Shown here one piece after another: positions 3,007 to 53,600 of a stretch of 64,000 bases of DNA. The notes under the pieces were generated by a model, which did not search any database, was not told where the DNA came from, and saw nothing but the letters and a program-made list of their open reading frames with translations. The stretch comes from Escherichia phage vB_EcoM_WL-3: sequence record MT968995.1; one strand, 5' to 3'. How positions within the stretch are numbered: the stretch's first letter is position 1; each line of letters begins with the position of its first letter. The position numbers were made by a program, and so were the translations under genes.

Positions 3007-3644
3007 TGAATGAACCCCAATTACTAATTGAAACTTGGGGTCAACCTGGCGAAATTATTGATGGTGTGCCAATGCTCGAATCCCACGATGGAAAAGACTT
3101 AGGTTTAAAACCGGGTTTATACATCGAAGGAATATTCATGCAAGCAGAAGTCGTCAATAGAAATAAACGTCTTTATCCAAAACGCATATTAGAAAAAGCG
3201 GTAAAAGACTATATTAATGAGCAAGTTTTAACTAAACAAGCTCTCGGAGAATTAAATCATCCTCCACGCGCTAATGTTGACCCGATGCAAGCCGCTATCA
3301 TTATAGAAGATATGTGGTGGAAAGGAAATGACGTATACGGACGAGCTCGTGTTATTGAAGGTGACCATGGTCCTGGAGATAAATTAGCAGCTAATATTCG
3401 TGCCGGATGGATTCCAGGAGTTTCTTCTCGTGGATTAGGTTCATTGACTGACACAAATAAAGGTTATCGTATCGTAAACGAAGGATTCAAATTAACTGTA
3501 GGTGTTGATGCAGTATGGGGTCCAAGTGCTCCAGATGCATGGGTAACTCCTAAGGAAATTACCGAATCACAGACGGCGGAAGCCGATACAAGTGCCGATG
3601 ACGCCTATATGGCTCTCGCAGAGGCCATGAAAAAAGCGTTATAA
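3006..3644 (+). CDS. 21: Prohead core protease gp21
   Basis: 212-aa ORF, length and position match T4 gp21. Confidence 0.9.
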   Translation: MNEPQLLIETWGQPGEIIDGVPMLESHDGKDLGLKPGLYIEGIFMQAEVVNRNKRLYPKRILEKAVKDYINEQVLTKQALGELNHPPRANVDPMQAAIIIEDMWWKGNDVYGRARVIEGDHGPGDKLAANIRAGWIPGVSSRGLGSLTDTNKGYRIVNEGFKLTVGVDAVWGPSAPDAWVTPKEITESQTAEADTSADDAYMALAEAMKKAL

Positions 3645-3674: not shown

Positions 3675-4484
3675 ATGCTTAAAGAACAACTGATTGCTGA
3701 AGCGCAAAAAATTGATGCTTCCGTTGCTCTTGATAGTATTTTCGAATCAGTTAATATTTCTCCGGAAGCAAAAGAAACTTTCGGCACTGTATTCGAAGCT
3801 ACCGTCAAGCAGCACGCCGTTAAATTAGCTGAATCTCATATCGCTAAAATTGCTGAAAAAGCAGAAGAAGAAGTAGAAAAAAATAAAGAAGAAGCCGAAG
3901 AAAAAGCTGAGAAGAAAATCGCTGAGCAAGCTTCTAAATTCATCGACCATCTTGCGAAAGAATGGCTCGCTGAAAATAAATTAGCAGTTGATAAAGGCAT
4001 CAAAGCCGAACTGTTTGAATCCATGCTTGGTGGATTAAAAGAGCTCTTTGTTGAACACAACGTTGTTGTTCCAGAAGAATCAGTTGATGTTGTGGCTGAA
4101 ATGGAAGAAGAGCTGCAAGAACATAAAGAAGAATCAGCTCGTCTGTTCGAAGAACTCAATAAGCGTGACGCATATATCAATTATGTGCAGCGTGAAGTGG
4201 CATTGAGCGAAAGTACTAAAGATCTGACTGAGTCTCAAAAAGAAAAAGTCTCTGCTCTGGTCGAAGGTATGGATTATTCAGATGAATTCTCAAATAAATT
4301 GAGTGCCATCGTAGAAATGGTGAAGAAGTCTAATAAAGATGAAAGCACTATTACTGAGGGTATAAATACTCCTGATACTGAAGCAGCCGGACTAAATTTC
4401 GTCACTGAAGCTGTAGAAGATAAAGCTGCACCTGGTGCAGAAGATATTGTAAGTGTATATGCGAAAGTCGCATCTCGTTTCTAA
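3675..4484 (+). CDS. 22: Prohead scaffold/core protein gp22
   Basis: 269-aa ORF, highly charged coiled-coil-like sequence; matches T4 gp22 in length and position. Confidence 0.9.
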   Translation: MLKEQLIAEAQKIDASVALDSIFESVNISPEAKETFGTVFEATVKQHAVKLAESHIAKIAEKAEEEVEKNKEEAEEKAEKKIAEQASKFIDHLAKEWLAENKLAVDKGIKAELFESMLGGLKELFVEHNVVVPEESVDVVAEMEEELQEHKEESARLFEELNKRDAYINYVQREVALSESTKDLTESQKEKVSALVEGMDYSDEFSNKLSAIVEMVKKSNKDESTITEGINTPDTEAAGLNFVTEAVEDKAAPGAEDIVSVYAKVASRF

Positions 4485-7465: not shown

Positions 7466-8470
7466 TTAACTTACCAATTCAATCCAAGCCGGACGAAGTA
7501 CATCTTGTACCATTTTAACTAATTCCTTTTTAACCAAAGAAGGATTATCTGCTTGAGTTAGAGTAATACCTTCACGAGAAGTTTCTTCCAAAATATCTTG
7601 AACAGTTAGTCCCATCACCTTTCCAAAATCCTTCGGACCAATTTCACCAATTTTAGAAATAACGTTATTTACTCGGTTCAGTGTAACGTAGCAAGCTAAA
7701 ATTCCCACCAATTTGTTATCAGCTTCTGATAGTTCAACTTTAGCTTTAATAGGCTTATCAGACTTTTTCTTTTCACTAAATTTGGAATTCTTGCATTTGA
7801 TGGCTACACGATTTCCATTATGAAGCCAAGAAGGATAACAAGGTTTCAATACATATCCTTCAGCGGTAAATACTTCGCCTTTGGCTTCAGCTTTCCAAAC
7901 ACATTTGTTAGCGTCAACTAATCCAGCATGGTCTACTGTAAAATTATAATCTTGGACGACAGAATCTAAATCATTTGGCAATTTAATAAGTTCTTCAAAT
8001 TTACCACGACCTAAAAGTGGAGCCATTTTAAATTTAAATGTATTACAAAATGATTCCATCATATAATCATCGACATAAGTCACATCACCACTTTCTGTAG
8101 TGACAATAATGTCAAATACATAAAAATCTTTATCGCCATAATCGACATTCTTCTGAATGCCAGGTCCAGCGAATTCGCCAAAGACTTGATAAGATACAAC
8201 CGCCGAAGTTTCCATAATATCTTGTACTGCTTTAATAGAATCTTCGTAATTCTTTAGAATAATTTCATGCCCAAAGAAATCTTCAGCAGGAAGAATCGGT
8301 CCAGTACGTTTAGCGCAAGTTACTTTATCACGCTCAATAATCAATGAGAAATTTGTGCCGTGAATCTTTTCACGAGCTACCCACTCCCCACCAGTCAATC
8401 CCAAGCTATAAAGTTTTTCAATGAATTTAGAATTGTAATGATTTTCAAGACTGCTATACTTTTTAAACAT
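7466..8470 (-). CDS. rnlB: RNA ligase 2 (Rnl2)
   Basis: 334-aa ORF with the nucleotidyltransferase lysine motif EKIHGTN; matches T4 Rnl2 in length and position. Confidence 0.9.
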
Positions 8471-39957: not shown

Positions 39958-42222
39958 TCATAATTTACAGGATGAACAATCTTCAGCTTTTGGAGTTTCT
40001 ATTTCATAATCATCAGTACCAGAACCATCGCGGGTATTATGATAATAGAAATTTTTTCCGCCAAAATACCAAAAATACAAAAGGTCATCAATCATTATTG
40101 ACATTGGAACCTTTCCTTTAGGGAAGATTTGGGGGTCATAGTATGTATTCGCTGAAGCTGATTGACATACCCATTTCAGCATAATAGCTACTTGCGTAAG
40201 ATAAGGTTTATTACCTTTCTTAGCTAATTTCCATGTATAATCATAGAGGTCTATGTTATGCTCAATATTGGGCACGACTTGATTAAAGGAACCCTCTTTT
40301 GATTCTTTAACACTTACCGGTCCACGTGGAGGCTCGATACCGTTTGTACTGTTAGAAACTTGGGAAGATGACTCACATGGCATAAGTGCTGATAATGTGC
40401 TATTACGGATGCCAAAGAGCTTAAGGTCTTCCCGCAGCGACGACCAGTCACAAACGTATTTTGGAGCTGCGATTTGGTCAATCTTTTTATTGTACCAGTC
40501 GATAGGTAATTCGCCTCGAGACCAACGAGTGTCTGAATAATATTCGCAAGGTCCTTTTTCTTTGGCGAGCTTAATGGATGCTTTAATGAGTCCATACTGT
40601 AATCTCTCAAATAGTTCATGTGTTAAATCGTTAGCATCTTCATAAGAAGCAAAGTTACTTGCCAGCCAAGCTGCATAGTTAGTAACACCTACACCAAGGT
40701 TACGACGCCTTTTAGCTTTTTCTGCTTCAGGAACTGGATATCCTTGGTAATCCAAAAGATTATCAAGAGCACGAACTTGGACTTCTGCCAATTCATTAAT
40801 TTTATCTTGGTCTTGCCAATCGAAGTTATCCAACACAAATGCAGATAACGTGCACAATCCAATTTCAGCATCAGGGCTATTCACATCATTTGTTGGAATA
40901 GCAATTTCACAGCACAAGTTACTCTGACGAATAGGTGCCTTTTCACGAATAAACGGAGTATAGTTATTCGTATTATCAATGAACTGCACATAAATCCTTG
41001 CTGTTCCTGAACGTTCAGTCATGAGCAATTCAAATAGTTCACGGGCTTTAATACGCTTTTTGCGAATATTAGGGTCTTTTTCTGCTGCTTCGTATAATTC
41101 ACGGAAACGGTCTTGGTCTTTAAAATAAGAATAATAAAGCTCGCCACCCATTTCATGCGGACTGAACAAAGTAATGTAATCGTTCTTTCCGAATCGTTCC
41201 ATCATCAAATCATTCAGCTGAACACCATAATCCATATGACGGATACGGTTTTCTTCTACACCTTTGTTATTTTTCAAAACGAGAAGATTTTCAACTTCCA
41301 AATGCCAAATAGGATAATAAGCAGTAGCAGCGCCGCCACGAATTCCACCCTGTGAACATGATTTAACAGCAGTCTGAAAATGTTTCCAAAAAGGAATAAC
41401 GCCAGTATGACGTACTTCACCTGTGCCAATCTTAGAACCTTCAGCACGAATCATACCAACGTTAATGCCAATTCCAGCTCGTTTAGAAATATACTCAACA
41501 ATTGAAGCAGAAGCCTTATTAATAGACTTTAATGAATCACCTGCCTCAATAACAACACATGAACTAAACTGTCGAGTTGGAGTACGACAACCAGCCATAA
41601 TAGGAGTTGGCAGTGAAATCTGTCGAGTGGATACTGCTTCATAAAAACGGATAACGTGTTTTAATCTATCAACAGGTTCATCTTGATGCAATGCCATTCC
41701 AATAGTCATAAATGCAAACTGTGGAGTTTCATAAATTTGACCAGTGGTTTTATCTTTAACAAGATATTTTTCTTTTAATTGCATCGCCCCGGAATAAGTA
41801 AATTCCATATCCCGCTCGTGCTTAATTTTTGATTCTAAAAATGTAATTTCTTCTGCAGAATATTTTGACAACAATTCAGGGTCGTATTTACCTTCATTTA
41901 CACAGTAAGAAATATGGTCAATAAATGAACGCGGTTCATATTGCCCATAAACATGCTTACGAAGAGCGAACATTAAACAGCGTGCAGCTACGTATTGATA
42001 ATCAGGCTCTTCAACTGAAATAGAATTCGCAGCAGCCTTAATTACAATGGTTTGAATGTCATCAGTTGTCATTCCATCACGGAGATATGATTTAATATTT
42101 TCATATAATTCATAAGGATCTACTGATGTTCCTTCAGCTGCCCAAGATAAAACTTTAATAATTTTTTGTGGGTCAAAGCTCTGAGAAACACCACTACTTT
42201 TGATAACATTAATTAATTGCAT
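39958..42222 (-). CDS. nrdA: Ribonucleotide reductase large subunit
   Basis: 754-aa ORF, same length as T4 NrdA. Confidence 0.95.
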   Translation of the reverse strand: MQLINVIKSSGVSQSFDPQKIIKVLSWAAEGTSVDPYELYENIKSYLRDGMTTDDIQTIVIKAAANSISVEEPDYQYVAARCLMFALRKHVYGQYEPRSFIDHISYCVNEGKYDPELLSKYSAEEITFLESKIKHERDMEFTYSGAMQLKEKYLVKDKTTGQIYETPQFAFMTIGMALHQDEPVDRLKHVIRFYEAVSTRQISLPTPIMAGCRTPTRQFSSCVVIEAGDSLKSINKASASIVEYISKRAGIGINVGMIRAEGSKIGTGEVRHTGVIPFWKHFQTAVKSCSQGGIRGGAATAYYPIWHLEVENLLVLKNNKGVEENRIRHMDYGVQLNDLMMERFGKNDYITLFSPHEMGGELYYSYFKDQDRFRELYEAAEKDPNIRKKRIKARELFELLMTERSGTARIYVQFIDNTNNYTPFIREKAPIRQSNLCCEIAIPTNDVNSPDAEIGLCTLSAFVLDNFDWQDQDKINELAEVQVRALDNLLDYQGYPVPEAEKAKRRRNLGVGVTNYAAWLASNFASYEDANDLTHELFERLQYGLIKASIKLAKEKGPCEYYSDTRWSRGELPIDWYNKKIDQIAAPKYVCDWSSLREDLKLFGIRNSTLSALMPCESSSQVSNSTNGIEPPRGPVSVKESKEGSFNQVVPNIEHNIDLYDYTWKLAKKGNKPYLTQVAIMLKWVCQSASANTYYDPQIFPKGKVPMSIMIDDLLYFWYFGGKNFYYHNTRDGSGTDDYEIETPKAEDCSSCKL

Positions 42223-42539
42223 AAGTCCTCAACTTGAAAATCGTCTTTAAACAATCGGTTAACTATATGAGCTATTATATCACCATGACACGGCTTTGGT
42301 TTACATGTGCATCCTAGCCTCATTCCACGTAAAGGCTCTAAATGTGCTTTAGTTATTTCTCCGGATTTAATTCGACGTATAAAATCTTTTTTGAATAATT
42401 CAATGGCAACCTCCCGGCTGCCAGCATCTTTACCGACGTAATTTCCCCAAAATGTACCACGGTGAATATTAACATCAAAGTCGGATTTATATTTATTCAC
42501 TACCTGGCATAGACGGCCCGCGCGGTGATAATTCGTCAT
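42213..42539 (-). CDS. Hypothetical protein (nrdA.1-like)
   Basis: 108-aa ORF overlapping the nrdA start. Confidence 0.6.
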
Positions 42540-42756
42540 ATTGTTTTTCCGTTAAAACAGTAATATCATAGTAACAATCTGAAGAAGTTTTAACTGTAGA
42601 AATTTTATTATCAAAATACTCACGAGTCATTTTATGAGTATAATATTTTTTGCCATAAATGATAATAGGCTGATTTGGTCCTGGAACTTCTAACTCACTT
42701 GGATTAGGAAGTGTAAAAAGAACTGCACCAGAAGTATCTTTAAATCGTAAAATCAT
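42493..42756 (-). CDS. Hypothetical protein (nrdA.2-like)
   Basis: 87-aa ORF. Confidence 0.55.
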
Positions 42757-42779
42757 ATATCCTCACAGTTAATAATTAA

Positions 42780-43091
42780 TTACACCGCCATTTTTCCTTT
42801 AATAGGAGGGTGTGATTCGTAACCTTTAAGAACGAAATCTTTAGGCCTGAGTTTAAGAACATATTCCAATTGTTCTTTAGTAGAAAGATAGCGGAATTTA
42901 TAAGGCAATCCGCCTATTACCAGTTCACAAAGCTCTTTAGGTTCACGACGTAAAATTTCTTTACATTGTTCCACGTGGTTCATATAGATATGAGTATTAC
43001 CGCCAGAAAATATCAAATCTCCAGGAATAAGATTACACATCTTAGCTACAATATGAACCAACGCAGCATATGATGCAATATTAAATGGAAG
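42780..43091 (-). CDS. td: Thymidylate synthase, exon 2
   Basis: Encodes LPFNIASYA...KGKMAV; joined to exon 1 it gives a 286-aa TS; 3-prime splice site after the G at 43092. Confidence 0.92.
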   Translation of the reverse strand, partial: LPFNIASYAALVHIVAKMCNLIPGDLIFSGGNTHIYMNHVEQCKEILRREPKELCELVIGGLPYKFRYLSTKEQLEYVLKLRPKDFVLKGYESHPPIKGKMAV

Positions 43092-44107
43092 CATTATGTT
43101 CAGATAAGGTCGTTAATCTTATCCCGGAATTATATCCAGCTGCATGTCACCATACAGATCAGACTATATCTCCATCTTGATGAAGCAAGATGTCTATCGT
43201 TTCGAGTCACTTGACCCTACTCCCCAAAGGGATAGTCGTTAGGCATTTATGTAGAACCAATTCCATTTATCAGATTTTACACGATAAGTAACTAATCCAG
43301 ACGAAATTTTAAAATGTCTAGCTGCATCTGCTGCGCATTCAAAAATAATCCCGTCGCATGAAATCTTTTTAATATTACTAGGCTTTTTGCCTTTCATCTT
43401 TTCTGATATTTTAGATTTAGTTTTGTCCGAATGCTTATGATTAAAGAATGAATTATTTTCACCTGAACGATTTCTGCATTTACTACAAGTATAAGCAGAA
43501 GTTTGTATACGAACACCGCACTTACAAAATTTGTGTTTTTCTGGATTCCATCGTCCGTTTTTACTTCCGGGTTTACCGTAAAGAGCTTTCCGAGCATCAA
43601 GGCCAAGCTTAAGCATCTTAGCTTTAACAGTTTCAGAGCGTTTCTTAATAATTTCTTCTTTTAATGGATGTACAGAATATGTATCACCAAACGTTGCATC
43701 AGCAATATTATATCCATTAATTTTAGAATTAAGCTCTTTAATCCAAAAATTTTCTCGTTCAATAATCAAATCTTTCTCATATGGAATTTCTTCCAAAATA
43801 GAGCATTCAAATACATTACCGTGTTTGTTAAAAGACCTTTGAAGTTTTATAGAAGAATGGCATCCTTTTTCTAAGTCTTTAAAATGCCTCTTCCATCTCT
43901 TTTCAAAATCTTTAGCACTTCCTACATATACTTTATTGTTTAAAGTATTTTTAATCTGATAAATTCCACTTTTCATAAATACCTCTTTAAATATAGAAGT
44001 ATTTATTAAAGGGTAGTCCTACAATTTAGCACGGGATTGTCTACTAGAGAGGTTCCCCGTTTAGATAGATTACAAGTATAAGTCACCTTATACTCAGGCC
44101 TCAATTA
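43092..44107 (-). mobile_element. Group I self-splicing intron of td (1016 nt) carrying the I-TevI ORF
   Basis: Intron 5-prime sequence TAATTGAGGCCTGAGTATAAGGTGAC directly after exon 1 (in-frame TAA at the splice site); 3-prime end at ...ATAATG; total 1016 nt. Confidence 0.9.
43239..43976 (-). CDS. Homing endonuclease I-TevI (GIY-YIG)
   Basis: 245-aa ORF inside the td intron; N-terminal GIY-YIG domain (GIYQIKN...KVYVGSA) and C-terminal zinc-finger DNA-binding region. Confidence 0.93.
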   Translation of the reverse strand: MKSGIYQIKNTLNNKVYVGSAKDFEKRWKRHFKDLEKGCHSSIKLQRSFNKHGNVFECSILEEIPYEKDLIIERENFWIKELNSKINGYNIADATFGDTYSVHPLKEEIIKKRSETVKAKMLKLGLDARKALYGKPGSKNGRWNPEKHKFCKCGVRIQTSAYTCSKCRNRSGENNSFFNHKHSDKTKSKISEKMKGKKPSNIKKISCDGIIFECAADAARHFKISSGLVTYRVKSDKWNWFYINA

Positions 44108-44656
44108 ACCCAAGAACACGTCAACACTTCTTTGATACCACTGTAAATCCAAATATCCATTACGCACATTAAACTGATAGAACATATGACAAGGTGGTAA
44201 TGCCATATATTTAAGTTCAGCTGGATTCCACGCAGAAACAATTTGACGCCTATCATTCGGTAGTTTTTTAATACGATCAATAACTTCTACAATTTGGTCT
44301 ACACCGCCAAAATCACGCCATTGTTTTCCGTAAATTGGACCAAGTTCACCACTATGATATCCTAAATCTTTTGCTTGGTTTTCGTAATTTTCATCCCAGA
44401 CTGTTTTGCCTTGAATTAATGAATCGTGTTGAATTAATCGTAAATCATTGACATTTGTGCTTCCTGATAAAAACCAAAGGAGCTCAGCAATGCAAGCTTT
44501 CCAGGCGAGCTTCTTAGTCGTTACTGCAGGAAAACCTTTAGTTAAATCCCAGCGTAATTTAGTACCGAACAAAGCAATTGTTCCTGTGCCTGTTCGGTCA
44601 TCGGTTTCATAGCCATTTTCAAAAATGTCTTTAATTAAATCTTGGTATTGTTTCAT
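44108..44656 (-). CDS. td: Thymidylate synthase, exon 1
   Basis: 183 codons ending ...VDVFLG, with the active-site region LPPCHMFYQF. Confidence 0.92.
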
Positions 44657-44701
44657 TTAGTACCTTATATAAATTATAATACATTTTATGAAGCTAAATA
44701 A

Positions 44702-45061
44702 TCAATACGGTTTAGCATCAAATTTTCTTTCGATTTCAGGAGTGAAATATAATTCTTTACCACGTTTGGAAAAACGACCAATAATATGATAATTATTCTC
44801 ATCAAACGTGATATTGCCAATATCCATAGCTTTCAACCAAATATCGATATTTCTATCCAGCTTTATATCAAAATTCCAATACGGAGAACTATTACCGAAA
44901 ATACTGCAAGCGGATTCAGTGAAACAACTGCTATAAATTTTGTCTTTGGGAACTACTAATTGATAGACGCCTTTAATAAACTGAGGACCCTGCCATTTTG
45001 GTTGTTTCGCGTCTTTTTCTAATAGAATAGGGTAATAATTAAAGTTCATATTTTCCGCCAC
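44702..45061 (-). CDS. Hypothetical protein inserted between frd and td
   Basis: 119-aa ORF (GTG start; 115 aa from the ATG at 45049); no recognisable motif. Confidence 0.55.
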   Translation of the reverse strand: MAENMNFNYYPILLEKDAKQPKWQGPQFIKGVYQLVVPKDKIYSSCFTESACSIFGNSSPYWNFDIKLDRNIDIWLKAMDIGNITFDENNYHIIGRFSKRGKELYFTPEIERKFDAKPY

Positions 45062-45069
45062 GCGTTATT

Positions 45070-45654
<585 letters not shown>

Positions 45655-45897
45655 TCAAAACCCCCTTTCAATAAACCATTCAGCGGCTTTATTAGCATCA
45701 AAGAATAATTCTTCATATGTCTTTTCTTTGTTTTCAAAAACTGTCACACAAACACGTTGACATTCTCCACAGTATTCTTCTGACATACTCAAAGCGTCAG
45801 AAAACATTTCATTAAATTCATTTAAATCAGGATTATGCAATGCGTTAAAAATTGCATAATCGAATTCATCATTCATAAATTCAAATACAAAAATCAT
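45655..45897 (-). CDS. Hypothetical protein (frd.1-like)
   Basis: 80-aa ORF. Confidence 0.6.
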   Translation of the reverse strand: MIFVFEFMNDEFDYAIFNALHNPDLNEFNEMFSDALSMSEEYCGECQRVCVTVFENKEKTYEELFFDANKAAEWFIERGF

Positions 45898-46241
45898 ATT
45901 ATCTCATAATATAAAGGATCAGGAACATATCCACTGGCTTTAATCATTTTAATTAACGTTAACATTCCTTTATTAACTGCTCGTGAAATTTCATCAAAAA
46001 CTTCATCACTAAAAAGTTCTAACACGCCCTTCTGAACTTTTAATTTACACCCAACAATTTCGTCATCGCCTATAGTAAATTCGTTTCCGCCAATTCCACC
46101 GAAAAACTTAATTGCACCAGTCAACTGTCTTCCACGAGAATATGGGTCGTGTGATAAAGTAATATGAGTCACCCCAGGTACAGTTTTAAATTGGCAACGG
46201 ATGTTTACTTGGGCAATTCCAGTTACGTGAATGTCAGACAT
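45894..46241 (-). CDS. Hypothetical protein (frd.2-like)
   Basis: 115-aa ORF. Confidence 0.6.
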   Translation of the reverse strand: MSDIHVTGIAQVNIRCQFKTVPGVTHITLSHDPYSRGRQLTGAIKFFGGIGGNEFTIGDDEIVGCKLKVQKGVLELFSDEVFDEISRAVNKGMLTLIKMIKASGYVPDPLYYEII

Positions 46242-46251
46242 AATATTTTCC

Positions 46252-46494
46252 TCAAACAGACTTTTTCACAATTTTCCAATCAGCTTTAAACTGATCGACG
46301 TCAGAATGATAAATCCAGAACCCTGCGCTTTCTCCATCCTCATAAAGAGGGCATCCATCGCATTCATCTTCCCATCCCATGCCACGTAAAAGATGTTCAG
46401 CTTTTTCAACAAGTTCAGAATCTTTACCAATGATATTAAAATACCATTTACCTCTAACTTCTGAATCTTTGATGCTTTGGCGTTGTAATCTCAT
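46252..46494 (-). CDS. Hypothetical protein (frd.3-like)
   Basis: 80-aa ORF downstream of an early promoter. Confidence 0.6.
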   Translation of the reverse strand: MRLQRQSIKDSEVRGKWYFNIIGKDSELVEKAEHLLRGMGWEDECDGCPLYEDGESAGFWIYHSDVDQFKADWKIVKKSV

Positions 46495-46519
46495 TTTATT
46501 CTCCTTAGTTGATAGGGTA

Positions 46520-46549
46520 ATAGTATCACACTACTACCCTACTGTAAAC
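46520..46549 (-). promoter_or_regulatory. T4 early-type promoter (GTTTAC-N18-TACTAT)
   Basis: Minus-strand GTTTACAGTAGGGTAGTAGTGTGATACTAT. Confidence 0.5.
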
Positions 46550-46929
46550 TACTTTTTGAAAGTTTTTCGCAAAAGTTCAATGATTTCATCTACATTGTTT
46601 TCGTCTACAATGCAATGAATTTTTGTTACGCCAGAAATCTTGTCTTCGACTTCATCTTCTTCAGAAGTCGGTTCTTTATACTCGCGGAAACAATGAAATT
46701 CGTCTTCACAAATTTCTAAAAGTCTATCTTTGAGGTAAAAATGTTTTCCATTTGCGCATTCAATGTGTTTTACTGCTTTATATCCATTAGCGACAGAAAC
46801 TTCTTTAACTTCAAACCATCCGCCATTATCTCGAATAGCTTTAACTATTGATGAATTAGAACGTGGGCTATAATTAATAAATGTATCAATAAGTCTTGGA
46901 ACAAGTTCATACTTTCTACCAGTATACAT
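46549..46929 (-). CDS. Hypothetical Cys-containing protein
   Basis: 126-aa ORF. Confidence 0.6.
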   Translation of the reverse strand: MYTGRKYELVPRLIDTFINYSPRSNSSIVKAIRDNGGWFEVKEVSVANGYKAVKHIECANGKHFYLKDRLLEICEDEFHCFREYKEPTSEEDEVEDKISGVTKIHCIVDENNVDEIIELLRKTFKK

Positions 46930-46973
46930 TGTGTTTTCCTCATTTTAACGGGGCTGTAATAGCCCCTTGATAA

Positions 46974-47225
46974 TTATTGTTCAATCAGTCCCATATAAAA
47001 TTCTGCATCTTCAGAATCCATGCCATCACAATATTCATTAGCCATAAAGCGGGTGAGGTCTTCAAGAGGACCTTCAATGACAATAGAAAAATTGCAATAA
47101 TTGGGATCATCATGAATACTTGTGATACTAAGTTCAGGATAACGATTACGAATAATTTCTTCAATATATTCAAAATCAACGATGTCAATATCAACTTTAG
47201 CCATATTATTTTCCTCTTTAATCAT
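46974..47225 (-). CDS. Hypothetical acidic protein
   Basis: 83-aa ORF downstream of an early promoter. Confidence 0.6.
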
Positions 47226-47247
47226 CAGCAGTATTGCCGATAGTTGT

Positions 47248-47277
47248 ATAGTACTATAGAAGAACAGAGGTGTAAAC
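47248..47277 (-). promoter_or_regulatory. T4 early-type promoter (GTTTAC-N18-TACTAT)
   Basis: Minus-strand GTTTACACCTCTGTTCTTCTATAGTACTAT; shares the GATAGTTGTATAGTAC context with the motA promoter. Confidence 0.5.
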
Positions 47278-47308
47278 AGTTTTGTGAAAAAATTTTTGAA
47301 ATAAAAAA

Positions 47309-47327
47309 GGGGACCTCTAGGGTCCCC
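47309..47327 (-). terminator. Intrinsic terminator downstream of gene 32
   Basis: GGGGACC-CTAGA-GGTCCCC hairpin followed on the minus strand by TTTTTTATTT. Confidence 0.75.
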
Positions 47328-47349
47328 AATTAATTAGTAATATAATCTA

Positions 47350-48258
47350 TTAAAGGTCATTCAAAAGGTCATCCAGGTCCGTGTCATCAGCACTAGATGA
47401 ACTGCCAGAGCTTGAGCTCATAAAATCATCTTCAGTTTTTGTTTTAAAGTCATCAACATTAAATGCATCCAAATCATCAGCAACTTTATCGGCTTTCTTA
47501 GCGGCAGTTGCTGCGGCACCACCCATAGCAGCAGTTCCCATAACTTGACTGAATTTAGTGCTCAGTTCTTCAAACGATTTGAATTTATCTTTAGAAGTCA
47601 TTTCAGAAAGGTCAACCATTTGTTCGAACAGTTCTTTCTGGAAAGATTCATCATCAATGTTTGGAATCGCAGATTGATTCAGGAATTTAGATTCGTCGTA
47701 GTTACTAAAACCAGAAACTTGTTTAACTTTCAGTACAAAGTTAGCACCTTCCCACGGACAAGTTACATCAACCGGAGTTTCACCCATTTCAACATCAACG
47801 GCAATCATTGCATTGATTTTATCCCAGATTTTCTTACCGAAACGGTATTTAAATACTTTACCTTCATTTTCTGGAGCAGCTGGGTCTTTTACTACAAGAA
47901 TGTTAGCCCAGTAAGAAGTTTTACGTTTAACAAGACCGTACTCTTTATTGTCAGTGTTGTACAAATCATTTTTACTGATGTATTGACATACTGGACAAGA
48001 ATCGTAATCACCGTGGGTAGATGAACAGTTTTCAATATACCATTTACCATTTTTCTTGAAACCGTGATTTACAAGAATTGCGAATGGTGCTTGTTCATCA
48101 TTTTTAGACGGAAGAAAACGAATTACTGCTTGACCGTTACCCGCATTATCGAGTTTCAGTTTCCACTCGCCTTTATCTTCAGAAGAAAAACCACCTTTAT
48201 TTCCAGCCAGTTTAGCCATTTGTGCAGCGAGTTCAGCAGTAGATTTACGTTTAAACAT
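47350..48258 (-). CDS. 32: Single-stranded DNA-binding protein gp32
   Basis: 302-aa ORF with a zinc-binding Cys/His cluster and an acidic Ser/Asp-rich C-terminal tail; recognised as T4 gp32. Confidence 0.95.
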
Positions 48259-48357
48259 TTTTATTTCCTTTTTAATTTAATTAACAGTTGGTGCTATGAC
48301 GATGTATGACCTCATAGCTGGTCAGTGAGATAATTATAATCTATTTATAATAAGCAA

Positions 48358-49011
48358 TTAATACTTGCATGATTTCACAGTTTCAATGAAAACACTTTTA
48401 GCTTTCTGTGAATCAATATTTAAAATTTTTCTATAAGCTTTTAACTTTATAGAATAATTATTCCAGACTAAATTATCAGTCTGTTCATCATGTTTATCAA
48501 TTATATTTAAAAACGAATCAAGCAAGATAAACGTCTCAAACGAAATTATATTCGATTGAAGCAGTTTAAAAATATAACTTGATTGAACTTTTGGATTATA
48601 TTCAAAGATTTCTTTAAAAGCAGAAACTTCAACTTTTTTACTAAAATAATAAATGTTGCGAATATCTTCTTCAAACTTAAATTTAATTTGCTTTAAGCGT
48701 CCGATATATTCACGATAAAACACAAGTGCATCAGCGTCAGAGATGTCACCAATCCAAGCATCCTGGTTAGCAACAAGATTGCTTATAAAGATTAAAGCAA
48801 GTTCCTTTAATTTATATTTTTCTGATAACTTCTGGAAAAAATACTTATCCCTTCGCTTTTGATAAGCGGCATCAGACACCCGCATGCACCAATTATACTT
48901 AATTACATCATACTTTCCATTCATATGTTGTTTTATCATTAAGTATAATTTATAAACTGATTTACCATCAATGTATCTTTCACCACCAGCAGGCATGCGG
49001 AGTTTAATCAT
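48358..49011 (-). CDS. 59: Helicase loader gp59
   Basis: 217-aa ORF, length and position match T4 gp59. Confidence 0.9.
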   Translation of the reverse strand: MIKLRMPAGGERYIDGKSVYKLYLMIKQHMNGKYDVIKYNWCMRVSDAAYQKRRDKYFFQKLSEKYKLKELALIFISNLVANQDAWIGDISDADALVFYREYIGRLKQIKFKFEEDIRNIYYFSKKVEVSAFKEIFEYNPKVQSSYIFKLLQSNIISFETFILLDSFLNIIDKHDEQTDNLVWNNYSIKLKAYRKILNIDSQKAKSVFIETVKSCKY

Positions 49012-49346
49012 AGTAGAAAATCTAATGTATTAGTTTTTTCACAACGAACAACAGAAGGACGTAAAAGATTTTCGTCAATAGCTTCTGACTGAATTTTTTC
49101 AATTATACCCGAAGGAATAAATTTAGCAAATTGAGTTTCAGGAATAGAATTTTCTTCCAAGAATGCTGTTGTAGCTTCAAGATAACTCATTCCAAATTCT
49201 TCTACCATTTTTTCAATAATAAATCCATTTTCTTGGCGGTCAAGAAGCTTTGCAATTTCATCCTTTTCTTTCTTAATTGAAAGTTCTTTTTCTGAAAGAC
49301 CGGTCTCATCGACCGGACGAATATCATTTAGAGAAAACTGTGTCAT
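49008..49346 (-). CDS. 33: Late transcription co-activator gp33
   Basis: ORF 49008..49355; start at MTQFSL gives 112 aa as in T4 gp33. Confidence 0.8.
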   Translation of the reverse strand: MTQFSLNDIRPVDETGLSEKELSIKKEKDEIAKLLDRQENGFIIEKMVEEFGMSYLEATTAFLEENSIPETQFAKFIPSGIIEKIQSEAIDENLLRPSVVRCEKTNTLDFLL

Positions 49347-49593
49347 AAAGTTCAACTACCTCTTCAGTTTCAGCTTCAAACACATCACGGTTATCTTTAT
49401 GATACAAAGCTAACAAACGATTAAACATCTTACCATCAACGCCAAGTTCATCTTTGGCGCGAATTCGAATATCTTTAATCAATTCATTATAACCAGAAAT
49501 TTTCAGTTTATGATCAGATGCTTCTTTGATAAATTTAGCCAAGTCTTCGCCATGGATAGCTTCATCAAATTCGACCATTTCTTTTTTAGCCAT
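49324..49593 (-). CDS. dsbA: Double-stranded DNA binding protein DsbA
   Basis: 89-aa ORF, length and position match T4 DsbA. Confidence 0.8.
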   Translation of the reverse strand: MAKKEMVEFDEAIHGEDLAKFIKEASDHKLKISGYNELIKDIRIRAKDELGVDGKMFNRLLALYHKDNRDVFEAETEEVVELYDTVFSK

Positions 49594-49601
49594 TATTCAC
49601 C

Positions 49602-50519
49602 TCAAAATTCATTAATGCTATTAGTTAATTTAGAAAGACCCGCTTTTACAAAATATGAATAAATTTTGCCACGCGGTGGTAATTTATATGAATTATAGTA
49701 ATTCACAATGTTTGAAGCAATATTATCAGGAATATAATCAAAATCAATTAGAACTAAATTTTCTTTATATCGATTATATTCAGATTCAGTGAGAAGCACC
49801 TTAGCTTGCTCACGGTCATTAGCAATAGCTTCAACAACAGATGTTTTCATTGAAGGAGTTCGTTCACCTTCAACTCTGGTAAACCAAAAGTCAGATCGTA
49901 CTTTAACTGAAGCAACGTTATCCTTTTTATCACCTTTAAGGATTTTAGTCATACAGTCAATTTCAGCAGAACCGCTTTTAATTTTAACCCATTTCTTGTG
50001 CATCGGTGACCACTGCTTAACATTTGGGTATTTGTGAAGTTGAGTAAAGTCACCATCCGATGAAATGATTAAAATCTTGTGTCCTTCTAAAGAGAACTTT
50101 TTAACAAGAACAGCAATGTGGTCATCTGCTTCATACTTGTCAATATCCATAACAATGTATGGCATATAAGCTTTCAATTCATCTATAACTTTATGACTGG
50201 ATTCAAAATAACCTTCCCAGTCCCAAGTAGATTCTTCTCGTGCTTTTCCACGGTTTTTCTTATAATAATAAGCAAAATCACGACGCCAGTATCCAGATTT
50301 CGCGTTATCGATACACAGTACAATTTTAGTGTATCCAAGAGTTTTCGCTTTTTTGACATTAAACTTAATTGAGTTCAATATCAAATGACGAACCATTGAT
50401 AAATTAATTTTTTCTTTATCTGGGAAGTTTACCAAAGCAGTTGAAAGCGCAATTTGACTAAAGTCAATTAAGCAGATTCCTTCTTTGTAATCTTCATCCA
50501 GCATCATTTCTAAATCCAT
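49602..50519 (-). CDS. rnh: RNase H / FEN-like 5-prime to 3-prime exonuclease
   Basis: ORF 49602..50534; the ATG at 50519 (MDLEMM, GAGG SD) gives 305 aa as in T4 RNase H. Confidence 0.9.
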   Translation of the reverse strand: MDLEMMLDEDYKEGICLIDFSQIALSTALVNFPDKEKINLSMVRHLILNSIKFNVKKAKTLGYTKIVLCIDNAKSGYWRRDFAYYYKKNRGKAREESTWDWEGYFESSHKVIDELKAYMPYIVMDIDKYEADDHIAVLVKKFSLEGHKILIISSDGDFTQLHKYPNVKQWSPMHKKWVKIKSGSAEIDCMTKILKGDKKDNVASVKVRSDFWFTRVEGERTPSMKTSVVEAIANDREQAKVLLTESEYNRYKENLVLIDFDYIPDNIASNIVNYYNSYKLPPRGKIYSYFVKAGLSKLTNSINEF

Positions 50520-50548
50520 ATGAACCTCGTTCAATTAGTGAGATTTCT

Positions 50549-50578
50549 ATTATATACCATCCGAATCTTAAAGTAAAC
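50549..50578 (-). promoter_or_regulatory. T4 early-type promoter (GTTTAC-N18-TATAAT) for rnh
   Basis: Minus-strand GTTTACTTTAAGATTCGGATGGTATATAAT. Confidence 0.55.
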
Positions 50579-50581
50579 AAG

Positions 50582-50589
50582 TATAAATA
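50582..50589 (+). promoter_or_regulatory. Late promoter (TATAAATA) for gene 34
   Basis: Exact TATAAATA about 35 bp upstream of the gene 34 ATG. Confidence 0.6.
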
Positions 50590-50623
50590 CTTATTATTGA
50601 AAACACAATAGGAGCCCGGGAGA

Positions 50624-53600
50624 ATGGCCGAGATTAAAAGAAAGTTCAGAGCAGAAGACGGTCTGGACGCAGGTGGCGATAAAATAATCAACGTAGCTTT
50701 AGCTGATCGTACCGTAGGAACTGACGGTGTTAACGTTGATTACTTAATTCAAGAAAACACAGTTCAACAATATGATCCAACTCGTGGATATTTAAAAGAT
50801 TTTGTAATCATTTATAATAATCGTTTTTGGGCAGCAACGGATAATATTCCAAAACCTGCTGGAAGTTTTAATAGAATTCGTTGGAAAGCATTACGTACTG
50901 ATGCCGTATATACAACCGTATCATCTGGACCATATCAATTAAAATCCGGAGAAGCAATTTCAGTAGATACATCAGTTGGTAATGACATTGAGTTTAATTT
51001 ACCACCTTCTCCGCTTGATGGAGAAACCGTAATAATTCAAGATATTGGTGGAAAACCTGGTATAAATCAGGTTAAAATAAATTCTTCAAATCAGAGTATT
51101 GTTAATTTTAGAGGTGAACAAGTACGTTCAGTTCTAATGACTCATCCAAAGTCACAGATGATATTCATTTTTAATAATCGTTTGTGGCAAATGTATGCTG
51201 CTGATTATAGCAGAGAAGCTGCGATTGTTACTCCATCAACTGCATATCAAGCACAATCTAATGATTTTATCGTGCGTAGATTTACTTCCGCTGCGCCGAT
51301 TAATATTAAACTTCCGAGATTTGCTAATCATGGCGATATTATTAATTCGTGCGTAGATTTACTTCCGCTGCGCCGATTAATATTAAACTTCCGAGATTTG
51401 CTAATCATGGCGATATTATTAATTTCGTTGATTTAGATAAATTAAATCCACTTTATCATACAATTGTCACAACATATGATGAAACAACTTCAGTACAAGA
51501 AGTTGGAACTCATTCTATTGAAGGCCGTACATCAATTGACGGTTTCTTGATGTTTGATGATAATGAAAAATTATGGAGACTGTTTGACGGGGATAGTAAA
51601 GCACGTTTACGCATTATAACAACTAATTCTAATATTCGTCCAAATGAAGAAGTTATGGTATTTGGCGCGAATAACGGAACAGCCCAAACAATTGAACTTC
51701 AACTTCCAACCGATATTTCCATTGGTGATACTGTTAAAATTTCCATGAATTACATGAGAAAAGGACAAACAGTTAAAATCAAAGCTGCCGGTGAAGATAA
51801 AATTGCTTCTTCAGTTCAATTGCTGCAATTCCCAAAACGCTCAGAATATCCACCACCTGAAGCTGAATGGGTGACTGTCCAAGAATTAGTTTTCAATGGT
51901 GAAACTAATTATGTTCCGGTTTTACAACTTGCTTATATAGAAGATTCTGACGGAAAATACTGGGTTGTACAACAAAACGTTCCAACGGTTGAAAGAGTCG
52001 ATTCTTTAAATAATTCTACTAGAGCAAGATTAGGCGTAATAGCTTTAGCTACACAAGCTCAAGCTAACGTCGATTTAGAAAATTCTCCGCAAAAAGAATT
52101 AGCAATTACACCAGAAACATTAGCTAACCGTACTGCTACAGAAACTCGTAGAGGTATCGCAAGAATAGCAACTACTGCTCAAGTGAATCAGAACACCACA
52201 TTCTCTTTTGCTGATGACCTTATCATCACTCCTAAAAAGCTGAATGAAAGAACTGCTACAGAAACTCGTAGAGGTGTAGCTGAAATTGCTACGCAGCAGG
52301 AAACTAATACAGGTACTGATGATACTACAATCATCACTCCTAAAAAGCTTCAAGCTCGACAAGGTTCTGAATCATTATCTGGTATTGTAACCTTTGTATC
52401 TACTGCGGGAGCTACTCCAGCTTCTAGTCGCGAATTAAATGGTACAAATGTTTATAATAAAAACACTAATAATTTAGTTGTTTCGCCTAAAGCTTTGGAT
52501 CAGTATAAAGCTACTCCAACACAACAAGGTGCAGTAATTTTAGCAGTTGAAAGTGAAGTAATTGCTGGACAAAGCCAAGAAGGATGGGCAAATGCGGTTG
52601 TAACGCCAGAAACGTTACATAAAAAGACATCAACTGATGGAAGAATTGGTTTAATTGAGATTGCTACGCAAAGTGAAGTTAATACAGGAACTGATTATAC
52701 TCGCGCAGTCACTCCTAAAACTTTAAATGACCGTAAAGCAACTGAAAGTTTAACTGGTATAGCTGAAATTGCTACGCAAGTTGAATTCGACGCAGGCGTC
52801 GACGATACTCGTATCTCTACACCATTAAAAATTAAAACCAGATTTAATAGTACTGATCGTACTTCTGTTGTTGCTCTGTCTGGATTAGTTGAATCAGGAA
52901 CTCTCTGGGACCATTATACCCTTAATATTCTTGAAGCAAATGAGACACAACGTGGTACACTTCGTGTAGCTACACAAGTTGAAGCTGCTGCAGGAACATT
53001 GGATAATGTTCTAATAACTCCTAAAAAGCTTTTAGGTACTAAATCTACTGAAGCGCAGGAAGGTGTTATTAAAGTTGCAACTCGGTCTGAAACTGTAGCT
53101 GGAACGTCAGCAAATACTGCTGTATCTCCAAAAAATTTAAAATGGATTGTGCAGAGTGAACCTACTTGGGCAGCTACTACTGCGATAAGAGGTTTTGTTA
53201 AAACCTCATCCGGTTCAATTACATTCGTTGGTAATGATACAGCTGGTTCTACGCAGGACTTAGAACTATATGAGAAAAATAACTATGCAGTATCACCATA
53301 TGAATTAAACCGCGTATTAGCAAATTATTTGCCGTTAAAAGCAAAAGCTGTAGATAGTAATTTATTAGATGGTTTAGATTCACTCCAGTTCATTCGTAGG
53401 GATATTGCGCAGACGGTTAATGGTTCACTAACCTTAACACAACAAACGAATCTGAGTGCCCCTCTTGTATCATCTAGTACTGCTACGTTTGGTGGATCAG
53501 TTTCGGCAAATAGTACATTAACTATTTCTAATACTGGAACGGCAACTCGTCTTATTTTTGAAAAAGGGCCTCAAACTGGGACGAACCCAGCTCAAACGAT

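Follow-up and report, generated by a model that had tools for sequence, protein, structure and literature searches.

In the reference genome of phage T4 (NC_000866), the genes encoding dihydrofolate reductase (DHFR; frd) and thymidylate synthase (TS; td) overlap by 4 nt (ATGA), and no ORF is present at the junction. In a 64,000-nt stretch of the genome of Escherichia phage vB_EcoM_WL-3 (accession: MT968995.1; hereafter, the window), the same two genes are separated by a small ORF, which we call ORF A. This raises the question of whether a gene entered the junction, as a first-pass annotation made from the sequence alone had proposed, or whether one was lost from it in T4. The T4 overlap that this annotation had stated was confirmed by alignment, and the positions it gave for the frd stop (45070), the ORF (44702–45061), its internal ATG (45049), and the td start (44656) were all exact.

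Organization of the frd–td locus

Read along the minus strand, the block leading to frd consists of gene 32, FRD3, FRD2, frd.1 (DUF5417), DUF7247, an 80-aa ORF, and frd itself, and the block downstream of frd consists of ORF A, td exon 1, the td intron with I-TevI, td exon 2, nrdA.2, nrdA.1, and nrdA. Over the 12 kb at positions 40000–52000 of the window, the best-matching deposited phage reached 95.7%, with the alignment broken into two or three pieces. The frd gene (45070–45651, minus strand) encodes 193 aa, with the C-terminus ...SVYK followed by TGA, and its product shares 95% amino acid identity with T4 Frd. ORF A (44702–45049, minus strand) encodes 115 aa from the ATG at 45049, or 119 aa (44702–45061) from a GTG at 45061. 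It is followed on the same strand by a 45-nt spacer (44657–44701) and by td exon 1 (44108–44656), which begins with the ATG at 44656 and holds the first 183 codons of the thymidylate synthase gene. Directly after exon 1 comes the td group I intron, with a 245-aa I-TevI ORF (43239–43976). The window is that of a mosaic Tequatrovirus with both an I-TevI-bearing td intron and an ORF-bearing frd–td junction. A 9-bp direct repeat, TAAATGAAA, lies on the minus strand at 45068–45076, where it covers the frd stop codon, and again at 44651–44659, where it covers the td start codon.

ORF A is a coding gene under purifying selection

The ATG at 45049 appears to be the likelier start of ORF A, because GGCGGA lies immediately 5′ of it, whereas the GTG at 45061 is not preceded by a ribosome-binding-site-like sequence, and because most database entries use the ATG (the 115-aa form is the annotation in most GenBank records). 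The frd stop lies inside ATGAAATAA (45065–45073, minus strand), which forms a two-codon mini-ORF, Met-Lys-stop (ATG AAA TAA); this may be a remnant of the coupled frd/A start known from other genera. The copy of TAAATGAAA at the frd stop includes an ATGA at which no gene begins.

Judged from its sequence and that of its relatives, ORF A is a genuine protein-coding gene and not a chance ORF. We estimated the probability of 115 open codons arising by chance to be near 2e−4 (approximately 7% stop codons, AT-rich DNA). The phage-like codon usage remarked on in the first-pass annotation was borne out, with a GC3 of 28% for ORF A and 26–28% for frd, td, nrdA, and gene 32. Relative to T2, ORF A has eight synonymous and no non-synonymous differences, and relative to phage F2, 37 synonymous and 10 non-synonymous differences (dN/dS 0.03). 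Comparison with metagenomic homologues of 63–66% identity shows saturation of dS and a dN/dS of about 0.09–0.17. The overall range of 0–0.17 indicates strong purifying selection on the gene. Were ORF A untranslated, the segment would be merely a spacer or a regulatory region for td, and the weakness of GGCGGA as a ribosome-binding site and the promoter-like td elements within the 45-nt spacer are compatible with this; the probability of such a reading is negligible when set against the dN/dS values with saturated dS, the existence of a paralogue and of homologues that are recognizable as proteins at identities as low as 27%, and the confident AlphaFold model of the product.

Distribution of ORF A and of the fused junction

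The ORF A protein was found in 554 phage records by tblastn. Amino acid identity was ≥90% in 362 of these, including T2, T6, RB27, and many Tequatroviruses of Escherichia, Shigella, Yersinia, and Salmonella, and below 60% in the remaining 192, from Klebsiella, Enterobacter, Citrobacter, and other T4-like phages. The T4-type junction was counted with a 63-nt probe spanning it, which only 32 records matched without a break: strains and sub-clones of T4, T4T, RB55, RB59, vB_EcoM_112, G28, F1, FN, FL12, HY03, SG1, G2133, JEP6, and FL18. The ORF-bearing junction is therefore the majority state in Tequatrovirus (362 vs. 32 records). Outside that genus, RB69 (Mosigvirus) has the same fused ATGA junction (GTGTATAAATGAAACAATACCAA, RB69 locus 8384–8387), with strongly diverged flanks and a Frd that is 59% identical. 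Which of the T-even and RB phages carry the ORF had been left to such an alignment: T2, T6, and RB27 do, and T4, RB55, RB59, and RB69 are fused.

The first-pass annotation had suggested that ORF A could be a new accessory gene. Its accessory nature is upheld by its absence from T4; its novelty is not, because the gene is already catalogued and widespread. The identical 115-aa sequence had previously been recorded on 341 contigs, each time as a “hypothetical protein,” and the T2 record MH751506 names it RB32ORF229c; in a T2 fragment deposited in 2003 (AY310907), the gap between frd and td was left without annotation. The RB32ORF229c/PHROG 1928 hypothetical proteins (of T2, T6, RB27, RB3, CC31p239, and others) are the same gene at the same position after frd and show no difference from ORF A. 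A literature search for frd–td, PHROG 1928, RB32ORF229c, and the protein accessions found no paper on ORF A. Beyond correcting a T4-centred expectation, the presence of the gene in the window is of little value in itself.

Conserved synteny and a paralogue in other genera

Diverged homologues of ORF A (27–66% identity) lie directly 3′ of frd in at least seven other genera of the Tevenvirinae. A homologue of 105–113 aa has its start at the 3′ end of the DHFR gene, or just within it, in several metagenomic contigs and in Kanagawavirus IME523, Jiaodavirus Mineola, Marfavirus F48, Moonvirus CF1, Karamvirus CC31, and a Winklervirus (the Serratia phage CHI14 record). With the exception of Mineola, each of these has a second ORF (B, 113–124 aa) after A, and the thymidylate synthase gene lies beyond it. 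A and B are paralogous (hhalign probability 99.6%, E-value 2e−24), and both B and the Jiaodavirus homologue match phrog_1928; a six-frame profile search of the 64-kb window found no second member of this family. The genes are closely packed: frd and A overlap by 1–20 nt (the exception being a 1-nt gap in one JGI contig), A and B overlap by 14–35 nt in the other genera, and where B directly adjoins td, the two overlap at ATGA. The gene 32–nrd region as a whole is collinear in these phages, and the conserved place of A beside frd and td is no proof that it is functionally tied to them.

The frd–td locus is a hot spot of small-gene gain and loss. Other small ORFs of the gene 32–nrd cluster, namely frd.1/DUF5417, frd.2/FRD2, frd.3, DUF7247, nrdA.1/DUF4326, and nrdA.2/DUF5496, resemble ORF A in being small, collinear, variably deleted, and of unknown function, but their sequences are unrelated to it. 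A further short ORF (43–69 aa) lies between B and td in a Kanagawavirus-like metagenomic contig (4670–4879) and in Marfavirus F48 (3226–3354); these extra ORFs have a common motif, ...GERSLGFT.KAKQMIKLGYKPK....

The fused junction of T4 bears the signature of a deletion

The first-pass annotation had treated the ORF as an insertion. This is not supported: because the ORF-bearing state is the majority in Tequatrovirus and the position of the gene is common to at least seven other genera, we infer that T4 represents the derived, deleted state. The structure of the junction is consistent with this direction. The segment that distinguishes the window from T4 is 417 bp long and is flanked by the two copies of TAAATGAAA, which are 417 bp apart and have 11/12 identity over 12 nt. 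T4, in which frd and td are orthologous to those of the window and the flanks are of the Tequatrovirus type and identical up to the junction on both sides, lacks this segment and retains exactly one copy of TAAATGAAA. A single copy in T4 and a pair in the window are together the signature of a microhomology deletion. The repeat is largely set by coding, because frd ends with Tyr-Lys-TGA and td begins with Met-Lys.

A second difference between the two phages lies on the other side of frd. Between frd.1 (46252–46494, minus strand) and frd, the window has DUF7247 (45894–46241, 115 aa) and the 80-aa ORF (45655–45897), which has no Pfam match; T4 has neither. The 71-nt spacer between frd.1 and frd in T4 holds an approximately 60-nt relic of the 5′ end of DUF7247, and this relic, as a sequence trace, proves the direction of the event: T4 must have deleted the DUF7247 region, approximately 600 bp from the frd–td junction. 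Gene loss at this neighboring site provides independent support for losses by T4 in this region. Frd would then be flanked by two separate T4 deletions, making the reference phage gene-poor here.

These observations suggest the following history. The ancestral Tevenvirinae would have had a tightly packed, translationally coupled frd–A–B–td arrangement, with A and B as paralogues of approximately 105–125 aa. Tequatroviruses of the T2/T6 type, including the window, would have kept A and lost B, and T4 and its closest relatives would also have lost A, by the 417-bp deletion between the copies of TAAATGAAA. The ATGA overlap of T4 would be the product of this illegitimate deletion, selected since both genes stayed intact. 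The textbook frd/td overlap would accordingly describe a derived deletion state of T4 and a few relatives, and not the norm among T-even phages.

RB69 complicates this history. Its fused junction stems either from a second deletion, in parallel with that in T4, or from a polymorphism of greater age, and, because RB69 is closer to T4 than are the genera that carry A and B, the fused state could be the older one, with A re-acquired. Identities between the lineages also hint at an old lateral exchange of A. Between the window A and its counterpart in a Kanagawavirus-like metagenomic lineage (contig positions 4001–4348 and 4001–4360), identity is 63–66%, and between the corresponding Frd proteins it is only 47%; between this metagenomic lineage and Kanagawavirus IME523, the order is reversed, with 49% for A and 61% for Frd. 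The fused junction may thus have been ancestral to the T4/RB69 group, and Tequatrovirus may have gained (or regained) A through recombination with a Kanagawavirus-like phage, for which td, 85–95% identical across these lineages, would have supplied the homology. This would be an insertion in the historical sense, via ordinary phage–phage recombination and not by a mobile element. We consider it unlikely. It requires a precise gain between overlapping genes, followed by spread to >90% of Tequatrovirus records; the 9-bp repeat with one copy remaining in T4 is what a deletion leaves; T4 demonstrably lost genes approximately 600 bp away; and the GC3 of ORF A is native. Since dS between the window A and the Kanagawavirus-like metagenomic A is saturated, any transfer must have been ancient.

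ORF A is not recognizable as a mobile element

The first-pass annotation had also raised the possibility that the ORF is a remnant of a mobile-element insertion. According to this reading, the 417-bp segment would be a mobile cassette, for instance a transposon remnant or a free-standing homing endonuclease gene, and TAAATGAAA would be its target-site duplication. Presence and absence with exact boundaries, a 9-bp flanking direct repeat of the kind that a target-site duplication would give, and the proximity to I-TevI (and, in T4, to SegG) would all fit, and some GenBank records label the protein a “putative homing endonuclease” (MZ501089, MZ501046, and OR271596, from BASEL phages and a few others). 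Like ORF A, the Seg, Mob, and I-TevI genes vary in presence among close relatives and lie between conserved genes near td.

The protein itself does not resemble these enzymes. No match to GIY-YIG, HNH, LAGLIDADG, transposase, or recombinase families was found in Pfam, PHROGs, NCBIfam, or PADLOC, and the ORF A protein matched no Pfam family at an E-value of 10 or better. Among 23 family members, the only match to a nuclease family was a chance-level one in a single member (PF18431, RNAse_A_bac, E-value 0.14). The catalytic residues of GIY-YIG (Arg/Glu/Asn) or HNH (His/Asn/His plus metal ligands) enzymes are not conserved in 33 aligned sequences, structural comparison of the ORF A model did not find a nuclease fold, and a repeat search found no terminal inverted repeats at the ends of the 417-bp segment. 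A stretch that resembles GIY-YIG, “GVY...IYS,” was rejected because it is not conserved in the homologues. Unlike Seg, Mob, and I-TevI, ORF A lacks a GIY-YIG or HNH motif or fold, catalytic residues, and a DNA-binding domain, at a length of only 115 aa; its orthologues are fixed in position across many genera, with overlapping coding ends, and are under purifying selection as strong as that on a housekeeping gene. Its base composition (GC3) is native, and the flanking repeat is equally expected from a microhomology deletion. The mobile-cassette reading is thus largely refuted, and we regard it as highly improbable.

The homing-endonuclease label, which is spreading in GenBank, is unsupported by domain, residue, or fold evidence. 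The same applies to “putative glucose-1-phosphate adenylyltransferase,” the annotation in PQ571308 and in phage SF2-1.

Family, predicted structure, and possible function of the ORF A protein

The ORF A protein matches phrog_1928 with an E-value of 9.5e−36 (residues 8–115 on profile positions 2–125/126), and this family, which has no Pfam entry yet, occurs only in T4-like phages that infect Enterobacterales. When 1.84 billion cluster representatives were scanned with HMMER, 22 matched; two longer ones were dropped as low-complexity repeat artefacts, and the others are single-domain proteins of 95–116 aa. A second profile search added only hypothetical proteins of T4-like phages. Neither single sequences nor profiles gave a match when searched against Pfam, NCBIfam, PADLOC, and the sequences in PDB.

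The protein has a molecular weight of 13.6 kDa, is mildly basic (pI 8.5), and contains 17% aromatic residues. Across 33 aligned A and B sequences, Q16, W19, G27, G91, K95, and G97 are invariant, and L9, Y29, and F93 are nearly so, giving the family motifs Gln, Trp, Gly-x-Tyr, and Gly-Arg-Phe-x-Lys-x-Gly. None of the invariant positions in this set holds an acidic residue, His, or Cys. AlphaFold2 modeled the protein with a pLDDT of 92 and a pTM of 0.84, with strands at residues 6–12, 27–34, 38–40, 48–50, 62–64, 80–82, 86–96, and 99–104 and one helix at 68–76. The predicted domain is compact and rich in beta strands, and its single helix lies between b3 and b4 (b1-b2-b3-helix-b4-b5). The model had no significant structural match in PDB, and its weak matches were mostly OB folds (SSB, RPA, S1, Teb1, and HIN), which have a similar size and strand–helix order and likewise have conserved aromatic and basic residues. 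In a viral structure library, the only significant matches were uncharacterized proteins of other T4-like phages.

From these features, the product is predicted to be a small, non-enzymatic, OB-like domain that binds single-stranded nucleic acid or a protein partner. We infer a non-enzymatic binding protein because the invariant set lacks an acidic, His, or Cys residue, and the conserved Trp, Tyr, Phe, Arg, and Lys residues suggest a putative ligand-binding surface. T4 and RB69 are viable without ORF A; therefore, the gene is dispensable. We consider it probable, taking the parts jointly, that ORF A is a vertically inherited accessory gene, that T4 is derived by deletion, and that the product is a dispensable binding protein. 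Given its position and the coupled arrangement elsewhere, ORF A would be co-transcribed with frd and td as part of an early/middle nucleotide-metabolism cluster, so that its product would be made alongside DHFR and TS early in infection.

The main functional rival keeps the same gene history and makes the protein a host-takeover or anti-defence inhibitor, with its place beside frd merely an inherited gene order. Small early proteins of T-even phages often have such roles, and ORF A resembles them in being dispensable and variably present, in consisting of a single small domain without enzyme motifs, and in belonging to a family confined to T4-like phages of Enterobacterales. Such genes are usually fast-evolving and mobile, whereas ORF A is fixed in position and subject to strong purifying selection, and there was no match in PADLOC or elsewhere, though the PADLOC library does not model anti-defence proteins. 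This role is conceivable, if on the unlikely side. Alternatively, a specific functional tie of ORF A to DHFR and TS is possible. In its fullest form, A and B of PHROG 1928 would be small beta-domains of a structurally new class, devoted to phage DHFR and thymidylate synthase as their partners, which we regard as doubtful. If it were true, A and B might hold the two enzymes together within the dNTP-synthetase complex or regulate the translation of td, the lasting translational coupling between frd and td across the Tevenvirinae would be explained, and T4 and RB69 would be natural knock-outs. With its conserved, coupled frd–A–B–td module and a confident predicted structure that has no solved relative, the predicted binding protein is a reasonable and cheap target for functional study.

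The spacer upstream of td

As the first-pass annotation had described, td in the window has 45 bp of upstream sequence of its own with TATAAT-like and AAGG elements: TATAAT lies at 44673–44678, and AAGG, which resembles a Shine-Dalgarno sequence for td, at 44663–44666, 6 nt before the td ATG. The td gene of T4, by comparison, lacks both a spacer and a Shine-Dalgarno sequence of its own. A MotA-box-like sequence, TTTAGCTTCA, is present at 44689–44698, followed after 12 nt by TAATTT or, alternatively, by TATAAT. A promoter scan around ORF A also gave a sigma-70-like match, TTGATT-18-TATTAT; matches of this kind showed no excess (8 vs. 7.3 expected in shuffles), and no terminator was found around ORF A. 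The td-proximal promoter is thus a resemblance in sequence, because consensus matches are no commoner than in shuffled sequence. In phages of the T2 type, td comes with a Shine-Dalgarno sequence of its own and a spacer that resembles a promoter, and the deletion in T4 would force td onto coupling with frd. The spacer between A and td is identical in T2 over its 45 nt, and in phage F2 it is 13 nt long.
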